34,628 nt of DNA from a virus (IMGVR_UViG_2558860472_000005:1-34628); one strand, 5' to 3'; shown: positions 1 to 27,994, counted from the first letter of the stretch. Translations and numbers: made by a program. Notes: generated by a model from the sequence alone, not told the origin.

Positions 1-720
1 TTATAATTTAGCAAGCTCGTCAATCAATTGTGGGTTCTTTGACATAAAAGCTACATATGAGCTTCCTATCGTAGTGAGTTTGTAACCAGCATCACTTTCA
101 TAAATGAGTTTATTGCTTACTGGATACGAAATATATTTGATCCAATCCCAATCTGCGAAAGCTTCTTTATTATGATTTTTTGTTTTTTCAAAGAACTGAA
201 TAGCATCTTCTTTGCGGATATAACCACCATTGCTAGCAATTGTATAAAATAAGTCATATTGTGAGCGGAATAATACCTTGTTTATTTCAAAGTATCTTAC
301 AGCACTTTGCAAAAGAGATATTTCTCGTGCCAATAAATCAATTTTAATTTCATTGTCAGTATCTAGATCAGATGCTTGTTTCAATATGATTTGATATAAT
401 TCTTCACTGAATTCAGTTTTAAATTGTTCATGGTGTATTCTTATAGCTTCAATGCTCGTATTCTTTTGTAAGCTCGCCAAATTAGAATTTGAAGATTCTA
501 ATACTTCTGCTGTTTGTTTCTCTGCTATGAATTTTGCCGATATACCCGATAAAGTCGCGGATATTTCTGATAGCGTATTTTTAGAAAAAAAAGAACTGAC
601 AACTTCAAAAATTCGAGTTCGGAATCTGAATCCGATGATAAGAACAACAACTGGCCATGCAATGCTTTTTATCAGTTCAACGATTAGTTTCGGTGACCAA
701 CTACATACTAAATCTTCCAT
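1..720 (-). CDS. Hypothetical membrane-anchored protein (AT-rich accessory gene next to integrase)
   Basis: Complete 239-aa ORF with stop at 1-3; N-terminal hydrophobic helix (IAWPVVVLIIGF); strongly AT-rich unlike the phage core; no family recognised. Confidence 0.5.
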   Translation of the reverse strand: MEDLVCSWSPKLIVELIKSIAWPVVVLIIGFRFRTRIFEVVSSFFSKNTLSEISATLSGISAKFIAEKQTAEVLESSNSNLASLQKNTSIEAIRIHHEQFKTEFSEELYQIILKQASDLDTDNEIKIDLLAREISLLQSAVRYFEINKVLFRSQYDLFYTIASNGGYIRKEDAIQFFEKTKNHNKEAFADWDWIKYISYPVSNKLIYESDAGYKLTTIGSSYVAFMSKNPQLIDELAKL

Positions 721-919
721 TATCGCTCCTTTTACCTTAACTCTTATTGTGAAGTATCGCGTTTAAAAGCATGGCATTTCTGTTTGTTGCCTCACTTTCG
801 GTTATGCAAAATATAATACCTGAAAGATGTGAGTATCCCTACAATAGCCTGTTTTTGGCACATGCCTGTTTAGGTCTGTACCATAGCAATGCAAGGATAA
901 AATCTGAATTAATGCAATT

Positions 920-2104
920 TTAACCAGTTTTGATTTCCCCGTGTGGAACGACAATCCAATTAATGTGGTTTTGAGTGTAAATCTTAGTCGACTGAGCGTC
1001 GCTATGTGCCATTCGTCCTTGGGGATCGATACCCTGCTGATCGAAAAGATGCGCTGCCAGAGCTCTGATTTCATGAAAGGTTGGTCTTTCATCCATCGGT
1101 AGATTGTCGCATAAACCTAGCTTGTCTCGCGTTGCTGAAAACGATCGACTCAAATAGTCTGGTGCAACTTGTGTCGGATGTGAAACCTCTTTGCTTCGTT
1201 TAACTTGGCGTTCTGGGATTCTGTGAACGACAAACGGACTAGCCACATTATCTCGGCTATCGTCAATTATCCGTTTCAACTCTTCACCAATTGGTATTGC
1301 AACGTGTGACGCCTCTTTTTTTTGCACTTTTTGCCTGTGGATGTAAAGCGTCCCATATATGCCATTTTGTGGTTGTTCGAACCAGACACATCCACATATA
1401 CCGTCTTTAGGTTCGCGAATTGAGTAACGGATTCGCGATACTTCGAGTCGTGCATGTGTAGTTTGCAATGCTAGGTCCATTGCTGTTCTTAACCATGGTG
1501 CAGCGGCCTGCCTGATAGCTATAAAATGCTCGAGTGACAGGCGCCGTCTTTTCTTCTCATCAGTCCTACGCATTTTTTTTCTGATGGCCGGGTTATCCAG
1601 CATTAGTGATTCATCGACCGCATAAGAGAACAACTTTTTAAGAAAGCTGACCTTTCTGTTCTGCACATTTGCGGATGCGCTGGCATGATATTTGTTGATG
1701 TAGGTATTAACGTGTTCAAGTTCGATATCGCATGCCGGAACATTTACGAAAAACGCTTTTACGCGTAGAGCGTCATTTTTCCAGTCATCTAAGGTGCTCT
1801 GGGAAGGACGTTCGTCTTCGATAATCCGGGTCATTATGTGATCAACATGTTCAGCAAATGGTTTTGCTTCTCCGATAACACCGCCAGATTCTCTAATAAG
1901 ATTTTCTACTGATGGAGATAATTCTGCTCTCATCCTCAGGTTGTACTCTCTGGCGATTGCAATGGCTATTGCCCTATCCTTACCTATATTTTTCTTCTTT
2001 CCAGTAATAAGTGTGAATTTATAAACACCTCGATCTTTATCAAAAATCAGATAATCAGGAAGATGTCTGTATTCTTTTTTACGTGGCCTTGCCGCCATGG
2101 TCAC
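920..2104 (-). CDS. int: Tyrosine-type phage integrase
   Basis: 394 aa; C-terminal catalytic region with HEIRALAAH (His-x-x-Arg) and KIYTQNH (nucleophile Tyr) motifs; Xis-like gene immediately upstream on the same strand. Confidence 0.9.
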   Translation of the reverse strand: MTMAARPRKKEYRHLPDYLIFDKDRGVYKFTLITGKKKNIGKDRAIAIAIAREYNLRMRAELSPSVENLIRESGGVIGEAKPFAEHVDHIMTRIIEDERPSQSTLDDWKNDALRVKAFFVNVPACDIELEHVNTYINKYHASASANVQNRKVSFLKKLFSYAVDESLMLDNPAIRKKMRRTDEKKRRRLSLEHFIAIRQAAAPWLRTAMDLALQTTHARLEVSRIRYSIREPKDGICGCVWFEQPQNGIYGTLYIHRQKVQKKEASHVAIPIGEELKRIIDDSRDNVASPFVVHRIPERQVKRSKEVSHPTQVAPDYLSRSFSATRDKLGLCDNLPMDERPTFHEIRALAAHLFDQQGIDPQGRMAHSDAQSTKIYTQNHINWIVVPHGEIKTG

Positions 2105-2355
2105 CCCTCGTTTATTAACTTGCGAACAGCTTGACTAACCATTGAGTCGACTCCCCATTTTTCTGTTTCGCAGACAAAAACAGAACCGTCCACGATGCGT
2201 CCCATGAGTAGACCGTTCTCGACCCAACGTTTTATCGTTCGGTTGTCAGGAATTGAGCCATTAGAGAATTCACGGCGTCCCCATTGGCTCGCTTTCATTA
2301 GTTTTGCCATGGCTGTTTCTCCACTTAGCCCGCTGCACTCGGGCAGTAATATCAA
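2101..2355 (-). CDS. xis: Excisionase-like small DNA-binding protein
   Basis: 84-aa ORF overlapping the int start by 4 nt; small basic protein in the canonical xis position; true start may be the internal Met near 2311 (MAKLMKASQWGRREF...). Confidence 0.55.
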   Translation of the reverse strand: MILLPECSGLSGETAMAKLMKASQWGRREFSNGSIPDNRTIKRWVENGLLMGRIVDGSVFVCETEKWGVDSMVSQAVRKLINEG

Positions 2356-6909: not shown

Positions 6910-7851
6910 ATGAGCACTAAATTAACCGGCTATGTATGGGATGGTTGCGCTGCATCAGGCATGAAGTTATCCAGCGTGGCAATTATGGCCCGCCTGGCTG
7001 ATTTCAGTAATGACGAAGGTGTGTGCTGGCCATCAATTGAAACCATTGCCCGTCAGATTGGCGCGGGGATGAGTACCGTCAGAACGGCTATCGCACGGCT
7101 GGAAGCAGAAGGCTGGTTAACGCGTAAGGCGCGTCGCCAGGGTAACCGCAATGCGTCGAATGTTTATCAGCTTAACGTTGCGAAGCTTCAGGCAGCGGCA
7201 TTTTCTCAACTGTCAGATTCTGACCCGTCAAAATCTGACGCATCAAAATCTGACCCGTCAAAATTTGATGCGTCGAAATCTGGCAAAAAAGCGGGTTTTC
7301 ACCCGTCAGAATCTGGCGGGGATCCGTCAGTAAAATCAAAACATGATCCGTCAGATAAAAAACCTTCTCGTCCGGACGCTTCGCAACCGGACACGCAGAC
7401 GGCTGAACAGGATTTTTTAACTCGCCATCCTGATGCGGTTGTATTCAGCCCTAAAAAGCGCCAGTGGGGAACGCAGGATGATTTGACCTGCGCACAGTGG
7501 CTCTGGAAAAAAATCATCGCCCTGTACGAGCAGGCCGCCGAATGTGACGGCGAGGTGGTTCGTCCCAAAGAACCGAACTGGACAGCCTGGGCAAACGAAA
7601 TTCGCCTGATGTGTGTGCAGGATGGTCGTAATCATAAACAAATCTGCGAGATGTACAGCCGCGTCAGTCGCGATCCGTTCTGGTGCCGTAACGTGCTCAG
7701 CCCGTCGAAGCTGCGGGAAAAATGGGATGAGCTTTCCCTGCGCTTATCGCCGTCCGTCAGCACGTACACCGAAAAACGCGAAGACCCGTACTTCAAATCC
7801 AGTTACGACAACGTGGACTACAGCCAGATCCCGGCAGGATTCAGGGGGTGA
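6910..7851 (+). CDS. Replication initiator (lambda O-like, N-terminal HTH)
   Basis: 313 aa; N-terminal HTH-like DNA-binding region; internal 15-bp direct repeats (iterons) encoding a DPSKSD/ASKSD peptide repeat, as in lambda ori inside gene O. Confidence 0.75.
   Translation: MSTKLTGYVWDGCAASGMKLSSVAIMARLADFSNDEGVCWPSIETIARQIGAGMSTVRTAIARLEAEGWLTRKARRQGNRNASNVYQLNVAKLQAAAFSQLSDSDPSKSDASKSDPSKFDASKSGKKAGFHPSESGGDPSVKSKHDPSDKKPSRPDASQPDTQTAEQDFLTRHPDAVVFSPKKRQWGTQDDLTCAQWLWKKIIALYEQAAECDGEVVRPKEPNWTAWANEIRLMCVQDGRNHKQICEMYSRVSRDPFWCRNVLSPSKLREKWDELSLRLSPSVSTYTEKREDPYFKSSYDNVDYSQIPAGFRG
7211..7362. repeat. Iteron array (candidate replication origin) inside the O-like gene
   Basis: About five contiguous 15-bp repeats (CCGTCAAAATCTGAC and variants) at 7211-7284, then three degenerate copies to 7362. 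Confidence 0.55.
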
Positions 7852-10868: not shown

Positions 10869-10885
10869 TTTTGTGGAGAAAGTTG

Positions 10886-11257
10886 ATGCGTGATATTCAA
10901 ATGGTTCTTGAACGTTGGGGTGCATGGGTGGCAAATAATCACGAGGATGTCACTTGGTCGTCTATTGCTGCAGGATTTAAAGGACTAATCCCTTCAAAAG
11001 TAAAATCCCGCCCGCAATGTTGTGACGATGACGCGATGATCATTTGTGGGTGTATGGCTCGCCTGAAAAAGAACAACAGCGATTTGCACGATTTATTAGT
11101 GGATTACTATGTAGGAGGTATGACATTTATGGCGCTTGCCCGTAAACATGGGCGTTCTGATTGCTGGGTTGGGCGTTTATTGCAAAAAGCGGAAGGAGTA
11201 GTTGATGGTATGTTGATAATGCTAGATATTGAATTGGAAATGGAACGTAAAATTTAG
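10886..11257 (+). CDS. Late-gene antiterminator Q-like protein
   Basis: ATG 10886 with SD GGAGA; ERWGAWV and [21 protein letters not shown] motifs resemble Q family (from memory); immediately upstream of lysis region. Confidence 0.65.
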
Positions 11258-11486: not shown

Positions 11487-12014
11487 ATGTTATGGCTTAT
11501 TGAGTTAGTTAATAGGATGATTGAATCAATGCTTTCAAATGTAATTTTAAGTGGAGCTATGTCCACGTTATTGGCTGCATTTCTAATTTTTGTGTTTAAG
11601 GAGTATATAAAAAGGCCACCTAATTTTTCAGGGGTGTTTGAGATCGAGTGTAAAACGCTAAAATCATCATATAATTCATATGTAAACCTAACTACATTCT
11701 ATACATTAGTGTTGATTTGTGATAATAACACTATAGAAGGACATATTGAAAAAATAAAAGATATCGAAAATGATGGGTATGAAAGAAAATATATTGGCGT
11801 GCATCGCAATATTGGCGATGTCAATGGTGTAATTAAAAGAAATTACTTAAGACCTAACCATGCTTCGTTGAATATAAAAATGCATGGTGATAAGAGGGAT
11901 TATACTATTATGCTATATTTTAAGAAGGTGAATACGAAAAATATGAAAGGAACTTTTTTATCTACTGCTGCAGATTCTTCTGGAGATGTTAAGTGGCAGC
12001 GAAAAAATTTTTAA
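11487..12014 (+). CDS. Hypothetical membrane-anchored protein (AT-rich cargo, first gene of pair)
   Basis: 175 aa; N-terminal TM helix (VILSGAMSTLLAAFLIFVF); very AT-rich; 22-nt overlap with the next gene; no family recognised. Confidence 0.5.
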   Translation: MLWLIELVNRMIESMLSNVILSGAMSTLLAAFLIFVFKEYIKRPPNFSGVFEIECKTLKSSYNSYVNLTTFYTLVLICDNNTIEGHIEKIKDIENDGYERKYIGVHRNIGDVNGVIKRNYLRPNHASLNIKMHGDKRDYTIMLYFKKVNTKNMKGTFLSTAADSSGDVKWQRKNF

Positions 12015-12637
12015 TTTATTTACTGTCGTTGCCATATTTAATAATGGCTTCGATTATCATAAAGCTTAAAGTTAAAAGTATAATTGATGATTATGAGAAA
12101 TGTACTACTTATATTTACTGTAACTCGAAGAAATATAATAACATTTCTCCTGTTATGATTGATATATTAAGGTTAGCAGAGGATCATCGACAATTATTGC
12201 ATAGAGGGATTGACCCCATTGCAATCATTAGAACTTTTTATCTGAGGATATTTAAAAATATACACCAAGGAGCGAGCACTATAGAACAGCAGTTTGTGAG
12301 AACTATAACTAAAAGATACGAAAAAACAATACGTAGAAAGATAAGAGAGCAGATATTGGCTATATTGATTAGAAATGTATCAACTCCAGATGATATATGT
12401 AAGTGTTATCTTTCTTGTTGTTACTATGGCTATGGAACTTATGGGATAGATAATCTTTTAAAAAAGAAACAAAATATCAGTGATTTTGATATTGTTGCAA
12501 TGATTAAATATCCATTCAGGGGAGAAGTTGTTTCAGTTACAGAGGAACGATTTAAACATAGGTCGCTCTATCTTTCCACTTTATATAAATTAAATGCACA
12601 AAGGGATATGATTTTTTTGCGAAAATATAGTGGGTGA
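11993..12637 (+). CDS. GT51 (peptidoglycan glycosyltransferase/transglycosylase)-like domain protein, membrane-anchored
   Basis: 214 aa from GTG; hydrophobic N-terminus; four GT51 motifs in order and native-like spacing: EDHRQLLHRGID, GASTIEQQ, RRKIREQ, YLSCCYYGYGTYG; both putative catalytic Glu present. Confidence 0.7.
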   Translation: MAAKKFLIYLLSLPYLIMASIIIKLKVKSIIDDYEKCTTYIYCNSKKYNNISPVMIDILRLAEDHRQLLHRGIDPIAIIRTFYLRIFKNIHQGASTIEQQFVRTITKRYEKTIRRKIREQILAILIRNVSTPDDICKCYLSCCYYGYGTYGIDNLLKKKQNISDFDIVAMIKYPFRGEVVSVTEERFKHRSLYLSTLYKLNAQRDMIFLRKYSG

Positions 12638-13008: not shown

Positions 13009-13335
13009 ATGCCTCATAACCCAAATACCTGGCTGGAGTTGGTCCAGAGCTGGTGGCGTGGAGACACACCGCTGGGCGCAGTGATTATGTCGATCGTTAT
13101 GGCTGGTTTACGTATTGCCTATTTTGGCGGCGGTGGCGGATGGAAACGAAAAACACTCGAAATTTTGCTCTGTGGCGCTCTGACGCTGACATTTGCATCC
13201 GCTCTTGAGTATGTCGGATGGCCTAAATCACTTTCTGTTGCCATTGGTGGTGGTGTTGGGCTGATCGGTGTCGATGCTATTCGTGGGGCAGCAATGCGAG
13301 TAATCGGTAACAAATTTGGTAGCTCGAAGGAGTAA
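13009..13335 (+). CDS. S: Holin (lambda S family)
   Basis: 108 aa; three hydrophobic segments and charged C-terminus; directly upstream of an R-like endolysin. Confidence 0.85.
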   Translation: MPHNPNTWLELVQSWWRGDTPLGAVIMSIVMAGLRIAYFGGGGGWKRKTLEILLCGALTLTFASALEYVGWPKSLSVAIGGGVGLIGVDAIRGAAMRVIGNKFGSSKE

Positions 13336-13338
13336 TTT

Positions 13339-13815
13339 ATGCAGGCACTAAATTCCCAGCGTAAAGCTTTCCTTGATATGGTGGCATGGTCAGAAGGAAC
13401 GGATAACGGGCGACAACCGACACGTAACCACGGTTATGACGTTATTGTTGGTGGTGAACTGTTTACTGATTACTCCGATCATCCTCGCAAACTTGTCACG
13501 CTAAACCCCAAACTCAAATCAACAGCCGCCGGACGTTACCAGCTTCTTTCACGTTGGTGGGATGCTTACCGTAAACAGCTTGGTTTGAAAGACTTCTCCC
13601 CCAAAAGCCAGGACGCTGTGGCATTGCAGCAGATTAAAGAACGTGGCGCTTTACCGATGATTGATCGTGGTGATATTCGTCAGGCTATCGACCGTTGCAG
13701 CAATATCTGGGCTTCGTTGCCGGGCGCTGGTTACGGTCAGTATGAACATAAAATTGGTGACCTGATTGCCAGGTTTAAAGAGGTTGGCGGGGTGGTAAAT
13801 GAAGTTGAGCTATAA
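13339..13815 (+). CDS. R: Endolysin, lambda R-type lytic transglycosylase
   Basis: 158 aa; near-identical over most of its length to lambda R as recalled (NQRKAFLDM.AWSEGTDNGRQ.TRNHGYDVIVGGELFTDYSDHPRKLVTLNPKLKST...). Confidence 0.95.
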   Translation: MQALNSQRKAFLDMVAWSEGTDNGRQPTRNHGYDVIVGGELFTDYSDHPRKLVTLNPKLKSTAAGRYQLLSRWWDAYRKQLGLKDFSPKSQDAVALQQIKERGALPMIDRGDIRQAIDRCSNIWASLPGAGYGQYEHKIGDLIARFKEVGGVVNEVEL

Positions 13816-14260
13816 GCTAGTTATCGCTGCTTTCTTCGTTACTATTATTGGTTCTTTCATCTGGTCAGCGAATCATTACCACAATCAAGCCATTGAATAC
13901 AAAAAGCAGCGCGACGAAAACGCTATGGCATTACATTCGGCTATGGCGACGATCTCTGATATGCAGAAGCGTCAACGTGACGTAGCTGAACTTGACGCCA
14001 GATACACAAAGGAGCTTGCTGATGCTAACACGACTCTCGAAAGTCTCCGTACTGATGTCTCTGCTGGTCGTAAGCGCTTGCAATTCGCCGCCACCTGTGC
14101 AAAGTCAACGACCGGAGCCAGCGGCATGGGCTATGGAGAAAGTCCAAGACTTACAGCTGATGCTGAACTCAATTATTACCGCCTCCGAAGTGGGATCGAC
14201 AAGATAACTGCACAGGTTAACTACTTGCAGGAGTACATCAAGACACAGTGCCAGAAATGA
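13799..14260 (+). CDS. Rz: Rz i-spanin
   Basis: 153 aa; N-terminal TM anchor, coiled-coil body; strong similarity to lambda Rz (AVNHY...QRD.NA...DMQ.RQRDVA.LDA.YTKELADA). Confidence 0.9.
   Translation: MKLSYKLVIAAFFVTIIGSFIWSANHYHNQAIEYKKQRDENAMALHSAMATISDMQKRQRDVAELDARYTKELADANTTLESLRTDVSAGRKRLQFAATCAKSTTGASGMGYGESPRLTADAELNYYRLRSGIDKITAQVNYLQEYIKTQCQK
14022..14207 (+). CDS. Rz1: Rz1 o-spanin lipoprotein (embedded in Rz, alternate frame)
   Basis: ATG 14022 with SD AAGGAG; signal peptide with lipobox-like VSAC; proline-rich mature region (NSPPPVQSQRPEPAAW); nested in Rz as in lambda. Confidence 0.75.
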   Translation: MLTRLSKVSVLMSLLVVSACNSPPPVQSQRPEPAAWAMEKVQDLQLMLNSIITASEVGSTR

Positions 14261-14332: not shown

Positions 14333-15196
14333 ATGGAAAGAGGTGTGGTATTTAGTGCATGCGAATTACTTAAAACCGAGGATGGAAAAGGCATCCGTAC
14401 AGGTAAATGGATTAGTCAATTAGAAATAAACTATCTATGTCTTTATTGGGATAAACTAGTTTCACCCACTAATAATATTATACATACAGCATTAAATAAC
14501 GAGGATGAATTAGAAAAATGTGGATTGCTAACCAGACCGGTATATAGACATCATGGTTGTTTTGATGGCCAATATATGGCGGATTTTTATGCTGAAACTC
14601 ATGCCAAAACAATAGATATACTTAGGCATGCGGATTCTTCTGTCGATTGGCGCATGCATTTTTTAAGTGACCAAATAAACTTGGTGCCTGAATTATCTAG
14701 AACCTCAGAAGTGATACGTTTTGAGCTAGCAAATTTATTACCCGTTCCCACAGAAGATGTGCACCTACATGATATTCTTGATTTCAAGGAAAGAAGAAAA
14801 CCTGAATTAATCGCTTTACATGAATATCTTGATGAGCTTTACTTGGAAATAAAACGTTCTGGTGATATCAATCTTCAGAAAGCAAAAGCTCTTTCTAATC
14901 TTAAACAAGCAATAAAGGATATCGAACGCTTAAATTGTGAAGTGTGGAAAAGTCCAATAAAATTTAGCATCTCTACTTCTTTTGAGTTCGATTTTTCACA
15001 AATATTTAGTCTGGCGGGAACTGTTTTATCTATGTCAGTAGATTATCCTTATAATGTTATTGGAGGGGTAAGTAGTTTGGCTTGTTTTTTGGGAGGATGC
15101 ATAAAAATAAAGCCGCAATTTCAACAAGTGTTATCATTAGGTAATGATAAATTAGTTTACATAAGCAAAGGAAAATCGGAGGGTATTATTTCCTGA
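14333..15196 (+). CDS. Hypothetical protein (AT-rich cargo between lysis and packaging modules)
   Basis: 287 aa; AT-rich; hydrophobic C-terminal segment (FSLAGTVLSMSV...GGVSSLACFLGG); no family recognised. Confidence 0.5.
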   Translation: MERGVVFSACELLKTEDGKGIRTGKWISQLEINYLCLYWDKLVSPTNNIIHTALNNEDELEKCGLLTRPVYRHHGCFDGQYMADFYAETHAKTIDILRHADSSVDWRMHFLSDQINLVPELSRTSEVIRFELANLLPVPTEDVHLHDILDFKERRKPELIALHEYLDELYLEIKRSGDINLQKAKALSNLKQAIKDIERLNCEVWKSPIKFSISTSFEFDFSQIFSLAGTVLSMSVDYPYNVIGGVSSLACFLGGCIKIKPQFQQVLSLGNDKLVYISKGKSEGIIS

Positions 15197-15272
15197 TTTT
15201 TGATTCTCATAATCAATGAATGTTTTTTGTGAATATACTTATTTTAACCCTATAAATAATCAAGGTAATAAA

Positions 15273-15623
15273 GTGCCTCCTCGTATCCCGAAAGCCTGCC
15301 GTGCTCGAGGTTGCCGTAATACCACCACAGACCCGTCAGGCTACTGCGAAAGCCACAAAAGCGAAGGCTGGAAGCAATACAAGCCAGGCCAGTCCCGACA
15401 CCAGCGCGGTTATGGTTCGAAATGGGATGTTATCCGTGAACGTGTGCTCAAGCGTGACAAAGGCCTGTGTCAGTTGTGTTTGCGTGCCGGTGTGGTGCGT
15501 GAGGCGAAAACCGTTGACCACATCATCCCTAAAGCACATGGCGGCACTGATGCCGACAGTAATCTGCAGAGTCTGTGCTGGCCGTGTCATAAGGCGAAGA
15601 CGGCCCGTGAACGGTTGAAGTAA
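15273..15623 (+). CDS. Phage HNH endonuclease (terminase-associated)
   Basis: Zinc-finger/HNH motifs (CRARGC...C, DHIIPKAHGGTD, NLQSLCWPCH); probable GTG start at 15273 rather than the AT-rich ATG at 15216; sits before terminase small subunit. Confidence 0.75.
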   Translation: MPPRIPKACRARGCRNTTTDPSGYCESHKSEGWKQYKPGQSRHQRGYGSKWDVIRERVLKRDKGLCQLCLRAGVVREAKTVDHIIPKAHGGTDADSNLQSLCWPCHKAKTARERLK

Positions 15624-25702: not shown

Positions 25703-27538
25703 ATGGCTGAATTTGAGCTTAAGGCGTTGATCACCGGTGTCGACAGGCTTTCTCCCGCGCTGTCGAAAATGCAAAAGAAAATCCGGGGATTTAAACGCCA
25801 GGCGGAAGAAGCGTCACAGGGTGGGCTGGCGCTTGGTGGCGGACTGGCAGCGGGGCTGACGCTTTCCCTGAAATCTTATGCCGATCAGGAAAACGCCGCT
25901 ACCGGGCTGAAAGTCGCCATGATGGATGCGAACGGCGAGGTTGGAAAGAGCTTTCAGGACATCAATAAACTGGCTATTGGCCTGGGTAACCAGCTACCCG
26001 GTACAACGGCTGATTTCCAGAACATGATGCAGATGCTGGTGCGTCAGGGGATCCCGGCAGAAAACATTCTGGGTGGTGTGGGTAAAGCGACAGCTTATCT
26101 TGCGGTACAACTGAAAAAAACACCGGAAGCGGCTGCCGAGTTTGCCGCAAAGATGCAGGATGCTACCGGAACGGCCTCAGAAGACATGATGGGGCTGTTC
26201 GACACAATTCAGAAGGCGTTTTATCTGGGCGTTGACGACACCAACATGCTGTCATTCTTCACTAAAACCAGCTCTGTTCTGAAGATGGTGAATAAGGACG
26301 GTCTTCAGGCTGCACAGAGTCTTGCCCCCATCAGTGTCATGATGGATCAGATGGGGATGAACGGGGAGTCGGCAGGTAATGCCCTGCGAAAAGTTATCCA
26401 GTCCGGATTAAGCGTTAAGAAAATCAGGGACGTCAATAAAATCATGGCCCGCCAGAAACTCGGGGTACAGCTCGATTTTACTGATGGCAAAGGGAGTTTT
26501 GGTGGTCTTGATAACATGTTTAAGCAACTGGCAAAGTTGCGAAAACTGACCGACGTTAAGCGAACAGGCGTACTTAAGGCAATATTTGGTGATGATGCCG
26601 AAACCCTTCAGGTGGTCAATGCACTAATCGATAAAGGAAAGGATGGCTACGATCAGATCCAGCAGAAGATGAATAAACAGGCCAGCCTGAATAAACGTGT
26701 TCAGGCACAGCTTGGTACGCTGTCCAACCTGTGGGAGGCAATGACGGGGACCGCAACTAACGGCCTTGCGGCTATTGGCGGCGCATTTTCTGGTGACGCC
26801 AAAAATATCACGCAATGGCTGGGGGAGTTGGGGGAAAATTTCACGAAGTTTGCGGATGAAAATCCCCGGGTTATTCGCGGCGTCGTCGGGCTTGCTGCCG
26901 GTCTTGCGGTTCTGAAACTGGGATTGATGGGCGTGGGCAGTGCCATCAGTATTGTCAGCAGGATTATGTCGATGACGCCGATTGGCGTGATTGCGACGGC
27001 GATAGCCCTGGCTGCGGGATTAATTATCACTAACTGGGATGTTGTCGGACCTTATTTCAAGAAGCTCTGGGAAACCATTAGTCCTTATTTTGAGGCTGGC
27101 TGGGAACTTCTGAAGAAGGTTTTTGCCTGGTCGCCGCTGGGGATGGTGATCAATAACTGGGGACCGGTTGTTAAGTGGTTTCAGGATATGTGGGATAAGC
27201 TGAAGCCGATTATTGAATGGTTTACCGACAGTTCCGGTGACACGGTCGATGCCATTAACTCGGCGCAGTGGGGCGCGGGTGCTTATGATGCTTATGGGAC
27301 GGGAATACCGGCGCGGGGATACACACCTTATCCGGCGGTAGATCTGGCTCAGGCAAACAACGCCTCCGATGCCACAGGCCCGAATCCCTTCATGATTAAC
27401 AAAGCTTCTGCGCCAAAAGTTGACGGTGAGATCAAGGTCTCTTTTGTGAATTCGCCTCCGGGTATGCGGGTTATGGAAACGCGATCCAGCGGTTTTGATA
27501 TGAATCACGATGTTGGCTATACGCATATTGGCAGATGA
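25703..27538 (+). CDS. Tail tape measure protein
   Basis: 611 aa; Ala/Gly-rich with hydrophobic central segments and C-terminal Trp-rich region; follows chaperones. Confidence 0.85.
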   Translation: MAEFELKALITGVDRLSPALSKMQKKIRGFKRQAEEASQGGLALGGGLAAGLTLSLKSYADQENAATGLKVAMMDANGEVGKSFQDINKLAIGLGNQLPGTTADFQNMMQMLVRQGIPAENILGGVGKATAYLAVQLKKTPEAAAEFAAKMQDATGTASEDMMGLFDTIQKAFYLGVDDTNMLSFFTKTSSVLKMVNKDGLQAAQSLAPISVMMDQMGMNGESAGNALRKVIQSGLSVKKIRDVNKIMARQKLGVQLDFTDGKGSFGGLDNMFKQLAKLRKLTDVKRTGVLKAIFGDDAETLQVVNALIDKGKDGYDQIQQKMNKQASLNKRVQAQLGTLSNLWEAMTGTATNGLAAIGGAFSGDAKNITQWLGELGENFTKFADENPRVIRGVVGLAAGLAVLKLGLMGVGSAISIVSRIMSMTPIGVIATAIALAAGLIITNWDVVGPYFKKLWETISPYFEAGWELLKKVFAWSPLGMVINNWGPVVKWFQDMWDKLKPIIEWFTDSSGDTVDAINSAQWGAGAYDAYGTGIPARGYTPYPAVDLAQANNASDATGPNPFMINKASAPKVDGEIKVSFVNSPPGMRVMETRSSGFDMNHDVGYTHIGR

Positions 27539-27590
27539 CGGAACCAGATATAATTTGTCTTTAAGTTTGTTATCAACTGAAGGGAAATCT

Positions 27591-27968
27591 ATGGGTCTGT
27601 TACATGCCATTATAGGTAATGCCGGTGAAATTAATGCATCAGATGCACAACAGGAATTAGGGGCTGTTTTAGGTGAGGGAGAAAATGTCGAACTTGCCTA
27701 TAAACTCATTCGTGACCAAATTATTCTGACTAACAGAAGGTTAATTTTTATTGATAAGCAGGGTGTCACAGGGAAAAAAGTAGAGTATCGTTCGATTCCT
27801 TATAAATCTGTGACAAACTTTTCTATTGAAACCGCCGGGCATCTTGATCTTGATGCTGAAATGAAGATCTGGATTTCTGGTATTGCAGAACCGATAAAAA
27901 AACAGTTCAGTAAAGGAGCAAACATTTATAAATTGCAGGCTCATCTGGCTCAAAAAATAGCAGGGTAA
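27591..27968 (+). CDS. Bacterial PH-domain (bPH_1/YjqA-like) protein, AT-rich cargo in tail operon
   Basis: 125 aa from ATG 27591 with SD AGGGA; LTNRRLIFIDKQGVTGKKVEYRSIPYKSVTNFSIETAG...LDLDAEMKIWISG matches bPH family (from memory); AT-rich; own terminator. Confidence 0.6.
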   Translation: MGLLHAIIGNAGEINASDAQQELGAVLGEGENVELAYKLIRDQIILTNRRLIFIDKQGVTGKKVEYRSIPYKSVTNFSIETAGHLDLDAEMKIWISGIAEPIKKQFSKGANIYKLQAHLAQKIAG

Positions 27969-27994
27969 ACCTTACATTAATTTATGTCTTTCAT

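Follow-up and report, generated by a model that had tools for sequence, protein, structure and literature searches.

The stretch of DNA analysed here (referred to throughout as the window; 34,628 nucleotides from a virus) opens with a complete open reading frame (ORF) of 239 amino acids, which occupies positions 1..720 on the minus strand, begins at an ATG and has its stop codon as the window's first bases. The product corresponds to RefSeq entry WP_023568684.1, a 'hypothetical protein'. A Shine-Dalgarno sequence, AGGAG (726..730, minus strand), can be read straight from the sequence 5 nt upstream of the ATG, and alignment of homologous upstream regions shows that GGAG or GGGG is kept at this ribosome-binding site. 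The neighbouring gene (920..2104, minus strand) encodes a lambda-type tyrosine integrase, recognised through matches to the Pfam families Arm-DNA-bind_1 and Phage_integrase; the 239-residue gene lies 200 bp past its 3' end and is co-directional with it. The G+C content of the ORF is 32.5%, compared with 43.5% for the integrase gene and 50.4% for the window as a whole, and falls to 25% at third codon positions. Such a departure in composition from the phage backbone is characteristic of morons, and copies of the gene elsewhere have 32-37% G+C regardless of host. The first-pass annotation of this DNA, in which a complete and very AT-rich ORF just outside the integrase 3' end had been described, was therefore accurate on completeness, composition and position.

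AT-rich DNA can yield spurious ORFs on either strand, and several small overlapping ORFs are indeed predicted alongside this one, so that a chance ORF in an AT-rich spacer, or a decaying pseudogene, had to be considered. However, homologues keep a constant length of 239 residues down to 36% identity, and pairwise dN/dS values among five enterobacterial copies are 0.14-0.24, both of which mark the ORF as more than a chance one. In addition, the C-terminal domain of an AlphaFold2 model folds confidently, with pLDDT above 90, and the AGGAG ribosome-binding site is in place. The homologues, the predicted fold and the dN/dS values together refute a spurious or decaying ORF, to which we attach only a minute probability, and indicate that the gene is real and under purifying selection.

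The proL prophage and its cargo slot

Seven complete E. coli genomes hold positions 1-2200 of the window at an identity of at least 99.5%, in a prophage inserted in the tRNA-Pro gene proL, between yejO and yejM. In one of them, EC_J_9, the genes on one side run ccm-narP-yejO, then the 239-residue gene, then the integrase; some 35 kb away follow tail fibre genes, a GmrSD-type enzyme, a dinI remnant, tRNA-Pro and yejM. The prophage is bounded by a 57-bp direct att repeat, made up of the last 49 nt of tRNA-Pro, at its 3' end, and 8 further nt. The attL copy adjoins yejO (locus L001, positions 7708-7764, equivalent to window -292..-236) and the other lies inside the intact tRNA-Pro at the far end of the prophage. 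A tRNA search found no tRNA within the window, and no Rfam match was obtained across its whole length.

The first-pass annotation had offered two origins for the gene, namely host or island DNA beyond attL, or cargo carried at the phage end. A host origin might be suspected from the position of the ORF at the very edge of the window and from a composition unlike that of the remaining phage. Nevertheless, the attL repeat occupies the stretch 236-292 bp leftward of window position 1, farther out than the ORF by 236 bp, so that the gene is on the prophage side of attL. The empty proL site of E. coli K-12 has only 102 bp from proL to yejO and no such gene. Nor is this a conserved host gene found at empty sites: it occurs in no more than 10 of the 5426 complete E. 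coli genomes, seven at proL and three at ssrA. The position of attL, the empty K-12 site and the rarity in E. coli thus refute the first of the two origins, the probability of which we consider practically nil, and uphold the second: the gene is phage cargo, not host DNA. We hold its anatomy and its cargo status, taken jointly, with high confidence.

Some copies of the prophage appear to be decaying. In that of EC_J_9, a KilA-N gene is split by an IS3 element (L001 17074-18200), and the annotation marks several early genes as frameshifted or partial.

Comparison with sister proL prophages locates the gene more closely. What these have in common on the left is the host flank, attL and, as far as window -107/-104, some 125 bp of phage arm; they are homologous again from window 868-929, with the integrase shared; between the phage arm and the integrase they are unrelated to one another and carry at least five different inserts. 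The right edge of the variable region accordingly falls at 858..919, where homology to the sister prophages is about to resume (868 to 929). Besides the 239-residue gene (window and L001), the inserts comprise a 583-residue ORF (L002 5979-7730), a 289-residue ORF on the opposite strand (L003 6923-7792), a 283-residue ORF (L037 3047-3898) and, in L036 and L038 (1282-3862), ORFs of 255 and 127 residues with a recombinase remnant and a DUF2971 gene. The 583- and 289-residue ORFs, the only two of these inserts scanned, gave no Pfam or PADLOC match. Since unrelated inserts lie between common flanks, the interval between attL and the integrase is a swap slot, and the 239-residue gene occupies this variable slot between the attL-proximal arm and the integrase. 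The description of the phage end as a typical site for defence or lysogenic-conversion genes is supported by this diversity. The slot is well bounded in E. coli proL prophages, from window -106 to about 868-920, and with at least four other unannotated inserts is where more accessory or defence genes might be sought.

The opposite end of the prophage also bears accessory genes. On the attR side in EC_J_9 (L004 4503-6392) lies a gene for a 629-residue GmrSD-type enzyme, a type IV methyl-directed restriction enzyme (PADLOC mREase_IV, 1407 bits; Pfam GmrSD_N and GmrSD_C), which, together with a frameshifted dinI-like gene, separates the tail-fibre genes from attR. Once the phage is circular, the 239-residue gene and the GmrSD enzyme gene would be neighbours across attP; with the enzyme on its other flank, attP is bracketed by accessory genes.

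Other candidate cargo may be seen within the window. Positions 11487-12637 (plus strand), the stretch of lowest G+C content (29-33%), contain adjacent AT-rich ORFs of 175 and 214 residues. Both have a hydrophobic helix at the N-terminus, and they are flanked by an ORF at 10871-11257 and by apparent lysis genes (a small hydrophobic ORF at 13009-13335 and those following). Judging gene roles from the translations, this looks like a second cargo slot. A 287-residue ORF of about 35% G+C (14333-15196, plus strand), lying between an ORF at 13799-14260 and a small Cys/His-rich ORF at 15216-15623, is possibly another moron. Finally, a 152-residue ORF coincides with a dip to 37.6% G+C (27510-27968, plus strand) and is inserted, in an unusual spot for cargo, between a 611-residue ORF at 25703-27538 that looks like a tape-measure gene and the next long ORF, at 27984.

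A single-gene cassette on many carriers

In three E. coli genomes (2014C-3075, SCU-301 and 6EVA; loci L034 and L035), a 73%-identical copy of the gene lies directly downstream of an integrase at ssrA. The integrative, mobilisable element at L034 has its own integrase, a MobQ relaxase and a DUF4755 gene; that at L035 is truncated by IS1. The ssrA-island integrase is unrelated to that at proL (19% identity, E = 0.013), and homology between the two elements extends over exactly window 2..857, i.e. the ORF plus 137 bp upstream, and nothing beyond. The 5' region that moves with the ORF (721..857, minus strand) includes a conserved element, GTAGGGATACTCACAT..TTTCAGGTATTAT, kept in five of six aligned upstream regions and containing a -10-like TATTAT at 813-818 (minus strand). 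We infer that this element is a promoter; a consensus promoter scan called no promoter or terminator on the minus strand. In MINF_2E (NZ_LR890651.1), one of the seven carriers at proL, the match to the window breaks at position 745, where an IS3-family transposase is encountered. This insertion, about 25 bp upstream of the ATG, falls between the ORF and the conserved 5' element and probably cuts the gene off from its putative promoter.

Thirteen Klebsiella plasmids, about 110-340 kb in size, carry further copies. One was examined and is a phage-plasmid, since its other genes include those for a tail fibre, a large tail protein, a primase and DnaB. An Aliamphritea copy adjoins yet another integrase at a prophage edge, and four IMG/VR contigs carry copies, one between Bro-N and UmuDC and one 1.5 kb from an integrase. 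Others lie in an ICE-like TrbI region and in islands close to tRNA-Pro and tmRNA. An all-against-all BLASTP comparison of 245 neighbouring ORFs from 17 loci revealed no conserved neighbour, and the ORFs that come next downstream in Thalassolituus bear no relation to those in Aeromonas. On these sequence comparisons, the gene and about 137 bp of its 5' region are a self-contained single-gene cassette that is found on unrelated mobile elements and in defence islands.

The company that the gene keeps was surveyed in 145 ORFs within 5 kb at 19 loci. Matches to PADLOC models comprised Lamassu LmuB/LmuC, TIR-TM, bSEFIR, PDC-M40B, PDC-S31, PDC-M06B, mREase_IV and PbeA, a raw list without a background control from which only four hits were mapped to specific loci, among them Lamassu LmuB/LmuC to Oceanimonas, TIR-TM to Enterobacter and PDC-M40B to Thalassolituus. 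Among the same ORFs, Pfam identified six integrases and six transposases.

Predicted architecture and superfamily

The hydropathy profile of the protein (Kyte-Doolittle, 19-residue window) has a single peak, of 2.18 at residues 12-30, and no second one, bearing out the N-terminal transmembrane helix that had been proposed. We place the helix at residues 12-32 (625..687, minus strand). The positive-inside rule was applied to its flanks: Lys and Arg are more numerous on the C-terminal than on the N-terminal side in all 32 close homologues and in 55 of 61 distant members of the superfamily described below, which predicts an N-out/C-in topology with the rest of the protein cytoplasmic. From its sequence, the protein is thus predicted to be a bitopic inner-membrane protein whose stalk and winged helix (see below) face the cytoplasm.

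An AlphaFold2 model was obtained from a 32-sequence alignment, with a mean pLDDT of 76.6. The membrane segment forms part of a helix spanning residues 10-47 (pLDDT about 58-68). It is followed by a hairpin at residues 48-66, with strands at 48-56 and 59-66, modelled at low confidence (pLDDT below 50); this coincides with a conserved motif, SE.SA..SG.SAKF (523..579, minus strand). After a disordered linker at residues 67-89, again of low confidence, comes a helical stalk at residues 90-165 (226..453, minus strand; modelled as helical over 90-163, pLDDT 82-96), whose long helix, 123-163, ends in an invariant FRSQ. The remainder, residues 166-239 (4..225, minus strand), is modelled as a winged-helix (wHTH) domain with pLDDT of 88-96, a putative recognition helix WDWIKYISYP and a wing YKLT..G. 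Three helices and a beta-hairpin wing, the defining elements of this fold, are all present in the predicted domain. In the model, then, the order of parts would be a short external N-terminus of about 10 residues, transmembrane helix, juxtamembrane motif, flexible linker, stalk and Sso10a-like winged helix.

Conservation is concentrated in certain of these parts. Within the membrane helix, at least 90% of 61 distant members retain W22-P23, and a near-invariant pair of this kind is unusual for a passive anchor. In the juxtamembrane motif, E52 and G59 are invariant and S51, S54, A55, A62, K63 and F64 nearly so; the stalk, an acidic segment (net charge -5), has F151, R152, S153 and Q154 without variation. 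For the soluble part as a whole the pI is 5.2 and the net charge -5, again acidic, and the presumed recognition helix is aromatic, with one basic residue only. Double-stranded DNA binding is for these reasons doubtful; the winged helix is no less likely to bind a protein or some other ligand.

The gene had been called an orphan, wrongly. Close homologues form 75 clusters, nearly all exactly 239 residues long, all 'hypothetical' and all from Gammaproteobacteria: Enterobacterales, Aeromonas, Vibrio, Alteromonas, Pseudoalteromonas, Oceanimonas, Thalassolituus and Halospina. When 1.84 billion representatives were searched with a profile, 948 matched at E <= 1e-3, about 950 superfamily representatives in all, with 156 of them left at 1e-10 and 41 at 1e-30. 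Most members of this superfamily, which reaches Scalindua and Verrucomicrobiales, have 200-260 residues and the same layout as the 239-residue protein, and those of this typical length lack any fused enzymatic or effector domain. No homologue bears a name other than 'hypothetical protein' in the source annotations.

Searches of curated libraries with the 239-residue protein were uniformly negative. Pfam gave only DUF7659 at E = 0.037, below threshold; PADLOC-DB v2.0.0 gave no family at E <= 10; the best PHROG matches, at E = 0.13 and 0.16, were to unrelated families and not significant; and NCBIfam gave nothing significant. By sequence, the PDB returned only FliQ or ATP-synthase subunit b, matches that reflect membrane-helix or stalk composition and were rejected, and Sso10a, the best profile match (E = 0.2). 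Foldseek comparisons against BFVD and the PDB produced generic winged-helix matches only, none of them at E < 0.001. The accession of the protein was not found in a full-text literature search or in the DefensePredictor supplementary files, and the literature search revealed no described defence system with a transmembrane-plus-winged-helix architecture. The statement that no family is recognisable consequently stands as regards curated libraries; it does not as regards the C-terminal domain, a predicted winged helix.

Possible function and relation to known systems

Taken together, the properties above suggest that the protein is a plausible stand-alone phage-exclusion or defence factor at the inner membrane. 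In such a scheme, the gene would be expressed in the lysogen from its own putative promoter, and its product would act alone in exclusion or defence on the inner side of the membrane. A component of the incoming phage, whether DNA ends or an ejected or tape-measure-type protein, would be recognised by the winged-helix head. Genome entry or establishment might thereby be blocked; alternatively, the conserved transmembrane and juxtamembrane segments might oligomerise and the membrane collapse, in a form of abortive infection.

Certain observations count against any anti-phage or anti-MGE role. The protein matches no PADLOC, PHROG or NCBIfam model and has no enzymatic or known effector domain. 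Some homologues are found among ordinary chromosomal genes, downstream of the trp operon in Aeromonas and next to pnp at locus L031. Neither a megablast search with window 1-2200 nor a tblastn search with the protein found a match in 50,697 sequenced phage genomes. Weighing these points, we propose such a role tentatively, at somewhat under an even chance, and offer either specific mechanism, entry block or membrane collapse, as a low-probability suggestion.

The protein might instead serve its own element as a membrane-tethered DNA-binding factor, either tethering or partitioning DNA or regulating integration, excision or lysogeny. The 17 loci, however, share no conserved partner or target gene, and the integrases adjoining copies of the gene are unrelated. 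Sister prophages with the same integrase lack the gene, which is hence dispensable for integration and maintenance. The acidity of the soluble domain and a recognition helix poor in basic residues fit DNA binding badly, and the 10 or so residues outside the membrane leave no signal-sensing module. A factor of this kind seems unlikely to us, and a more particular version, an accessory factor of the integrase, is ruled out by the unrelated adjoining integrases and the geneless sister prophages.

A further possibility is a role in lysogenic conversion or host physiology, directed at an inner-membrane host protein, envelope stress or persistence, or else an addiction-like toxic membrane protein. 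Conversion genes, too, typically lie in cargo positions, are AT-rich and encode membrane-anchored products, the winged helix may bind protein rather than DNA, and the non-island chromosomal contexts of some homologues could be accommodated. On the other hand, the genes that recur nearby belong to defence systems and mobile elements and not to virulence or the envelope; there is no conserved antitoxin-like partner; and in E. coli the gene is rare and sporadic. We regard this explanation as distinctly improbable.

If a defence role is correct, the gene represents a new single-gene family missed by PADLOC, Pfam, NCBIfam and PHROG models, and one of unusually minimal architecture, with a membrane anchor and a winged helix and no enzyme. 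More speculatively, and with less confidence than we attach to a defence role as such, its product may belong to a widespread and unnamed superfamily of immune or exclusion factors that consist of one protein and are borne by mobile elements, and would be the first member to be recognised. The superfamily would comprise some 950 clusters at 50% identity, ranging from Gammaproteobacteria to Planctomycetota and Verrucomicrobiota and possessing nothing more than a transmembrane helix with a conserved Trp-Pro, a stalk and an Sso10a-like winged helix. Its members would halt incoming phage or plasmid genomes at the inner membrane without an enzyme, by capturing an entering component or by winged-helix-triggered permeabilisation. 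Should the gene have no anti-phage effect, it would be an ordinary prophage moron.

For the winged-helix fold, which is predicted with high confidence, a point of comparison is the Pfam family HTH_45 (PF14947). Of 61 superfamily relatives, 41 match it at E <= 0.01, two of them (P0140, 28.8 bits; P0131, 26.9 bits) exceeding the gathering score of 25.5, whereas the window's 239-residue protein itself has no match above threshold. The wing motif Y-x-(I/L)-T-x-x-G aligns with that of Sso10a. Sso10a, though, is a soluble, basic, archaeal chromatin protein, in contrast to the membrane-anchored, acidic, bacterial protein found here on mobile elements. Winged-helix transcription factors of the MarR or PadR type also differ: there is no family match, and the present protein is anchored in the membrane and has neither a testable ligand-binding or dimerisation signature nor a conserved target operon.

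Prophage superinfection-exclusion proteins provide possible functional parallels. The genes for SieA of P22, Sie2009 of lactococcal phages and Ltp of Streptococcus thermophilus TP-J34 lie beside the integrase or repressor gene, and Ltp, an extracellular lipoprotein, has helix-turn-helix-like repeats that bind a phage protein, not DNA. Like these, the protein described here is small, membrane-anchored and encoded at the lysogeny end of a temperate phage. Homology to them is nevertheless lacking, to judge from the insignificant PHROG matches and the negative search of phage genomes already mentioned, and its winged-helix domain is predicted to be cytoplasmic where Ltp is extracellular.

In PdpSau of Staphylococcus aureus prophages and AbiP of Lactococcus, each a single-gene abortive-infection protein, a membrane helix at the N-terminus is combined with a nucleic-acid-binding domain in the cytoplasm (PMC10127798). 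Several features are shared: each is a lone gene without a partner, carried as accessory cargo by mobile elements or prophages, and encodes a protein of about 240-280 residues in which an N-terminal transmembrane helix precedes a cytoplasmic domain of a commonly nucleic-acid-binding fold class, the bulk of the 239-residue protein being likewise predicted to be cytoplasmic. Yet no sequence similarity was detected, there being no PADLOC or Pfam match, and their domain is a positively charged OB-like one as opposed to an acidic winged helix on a helical stalk. The genes are also differently placed, pdpSau in the lysis module and the present gene at the junction of att and integrase.

SNIPE, lastly, is a nuclease bound to the membrane, and it cuts phage DNA as this is being injected (PMC13190303). 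It too is the product of a single gene, in which an N-terminal anchor sets a cytoplasmic module in place to meet phage DNA or the tape-measure protein at genome entry. The 239-residue protein differs in its small size and in lacking, by Pfam and PADLOC, both the DUF4041 and the GIY-YIG nuclease domains of SNIPE, so that any action at entry must proceed without DNA cleavage. By analogy, the protein may act in the manner of PdpSau, AbiP or SNIPE without belonging to any of their families and, if it does have a defence role, would extend to a non-nucleolytic case the recently described notion, illustrated by SNIPE, that bacteria police the site of phage genome entry.
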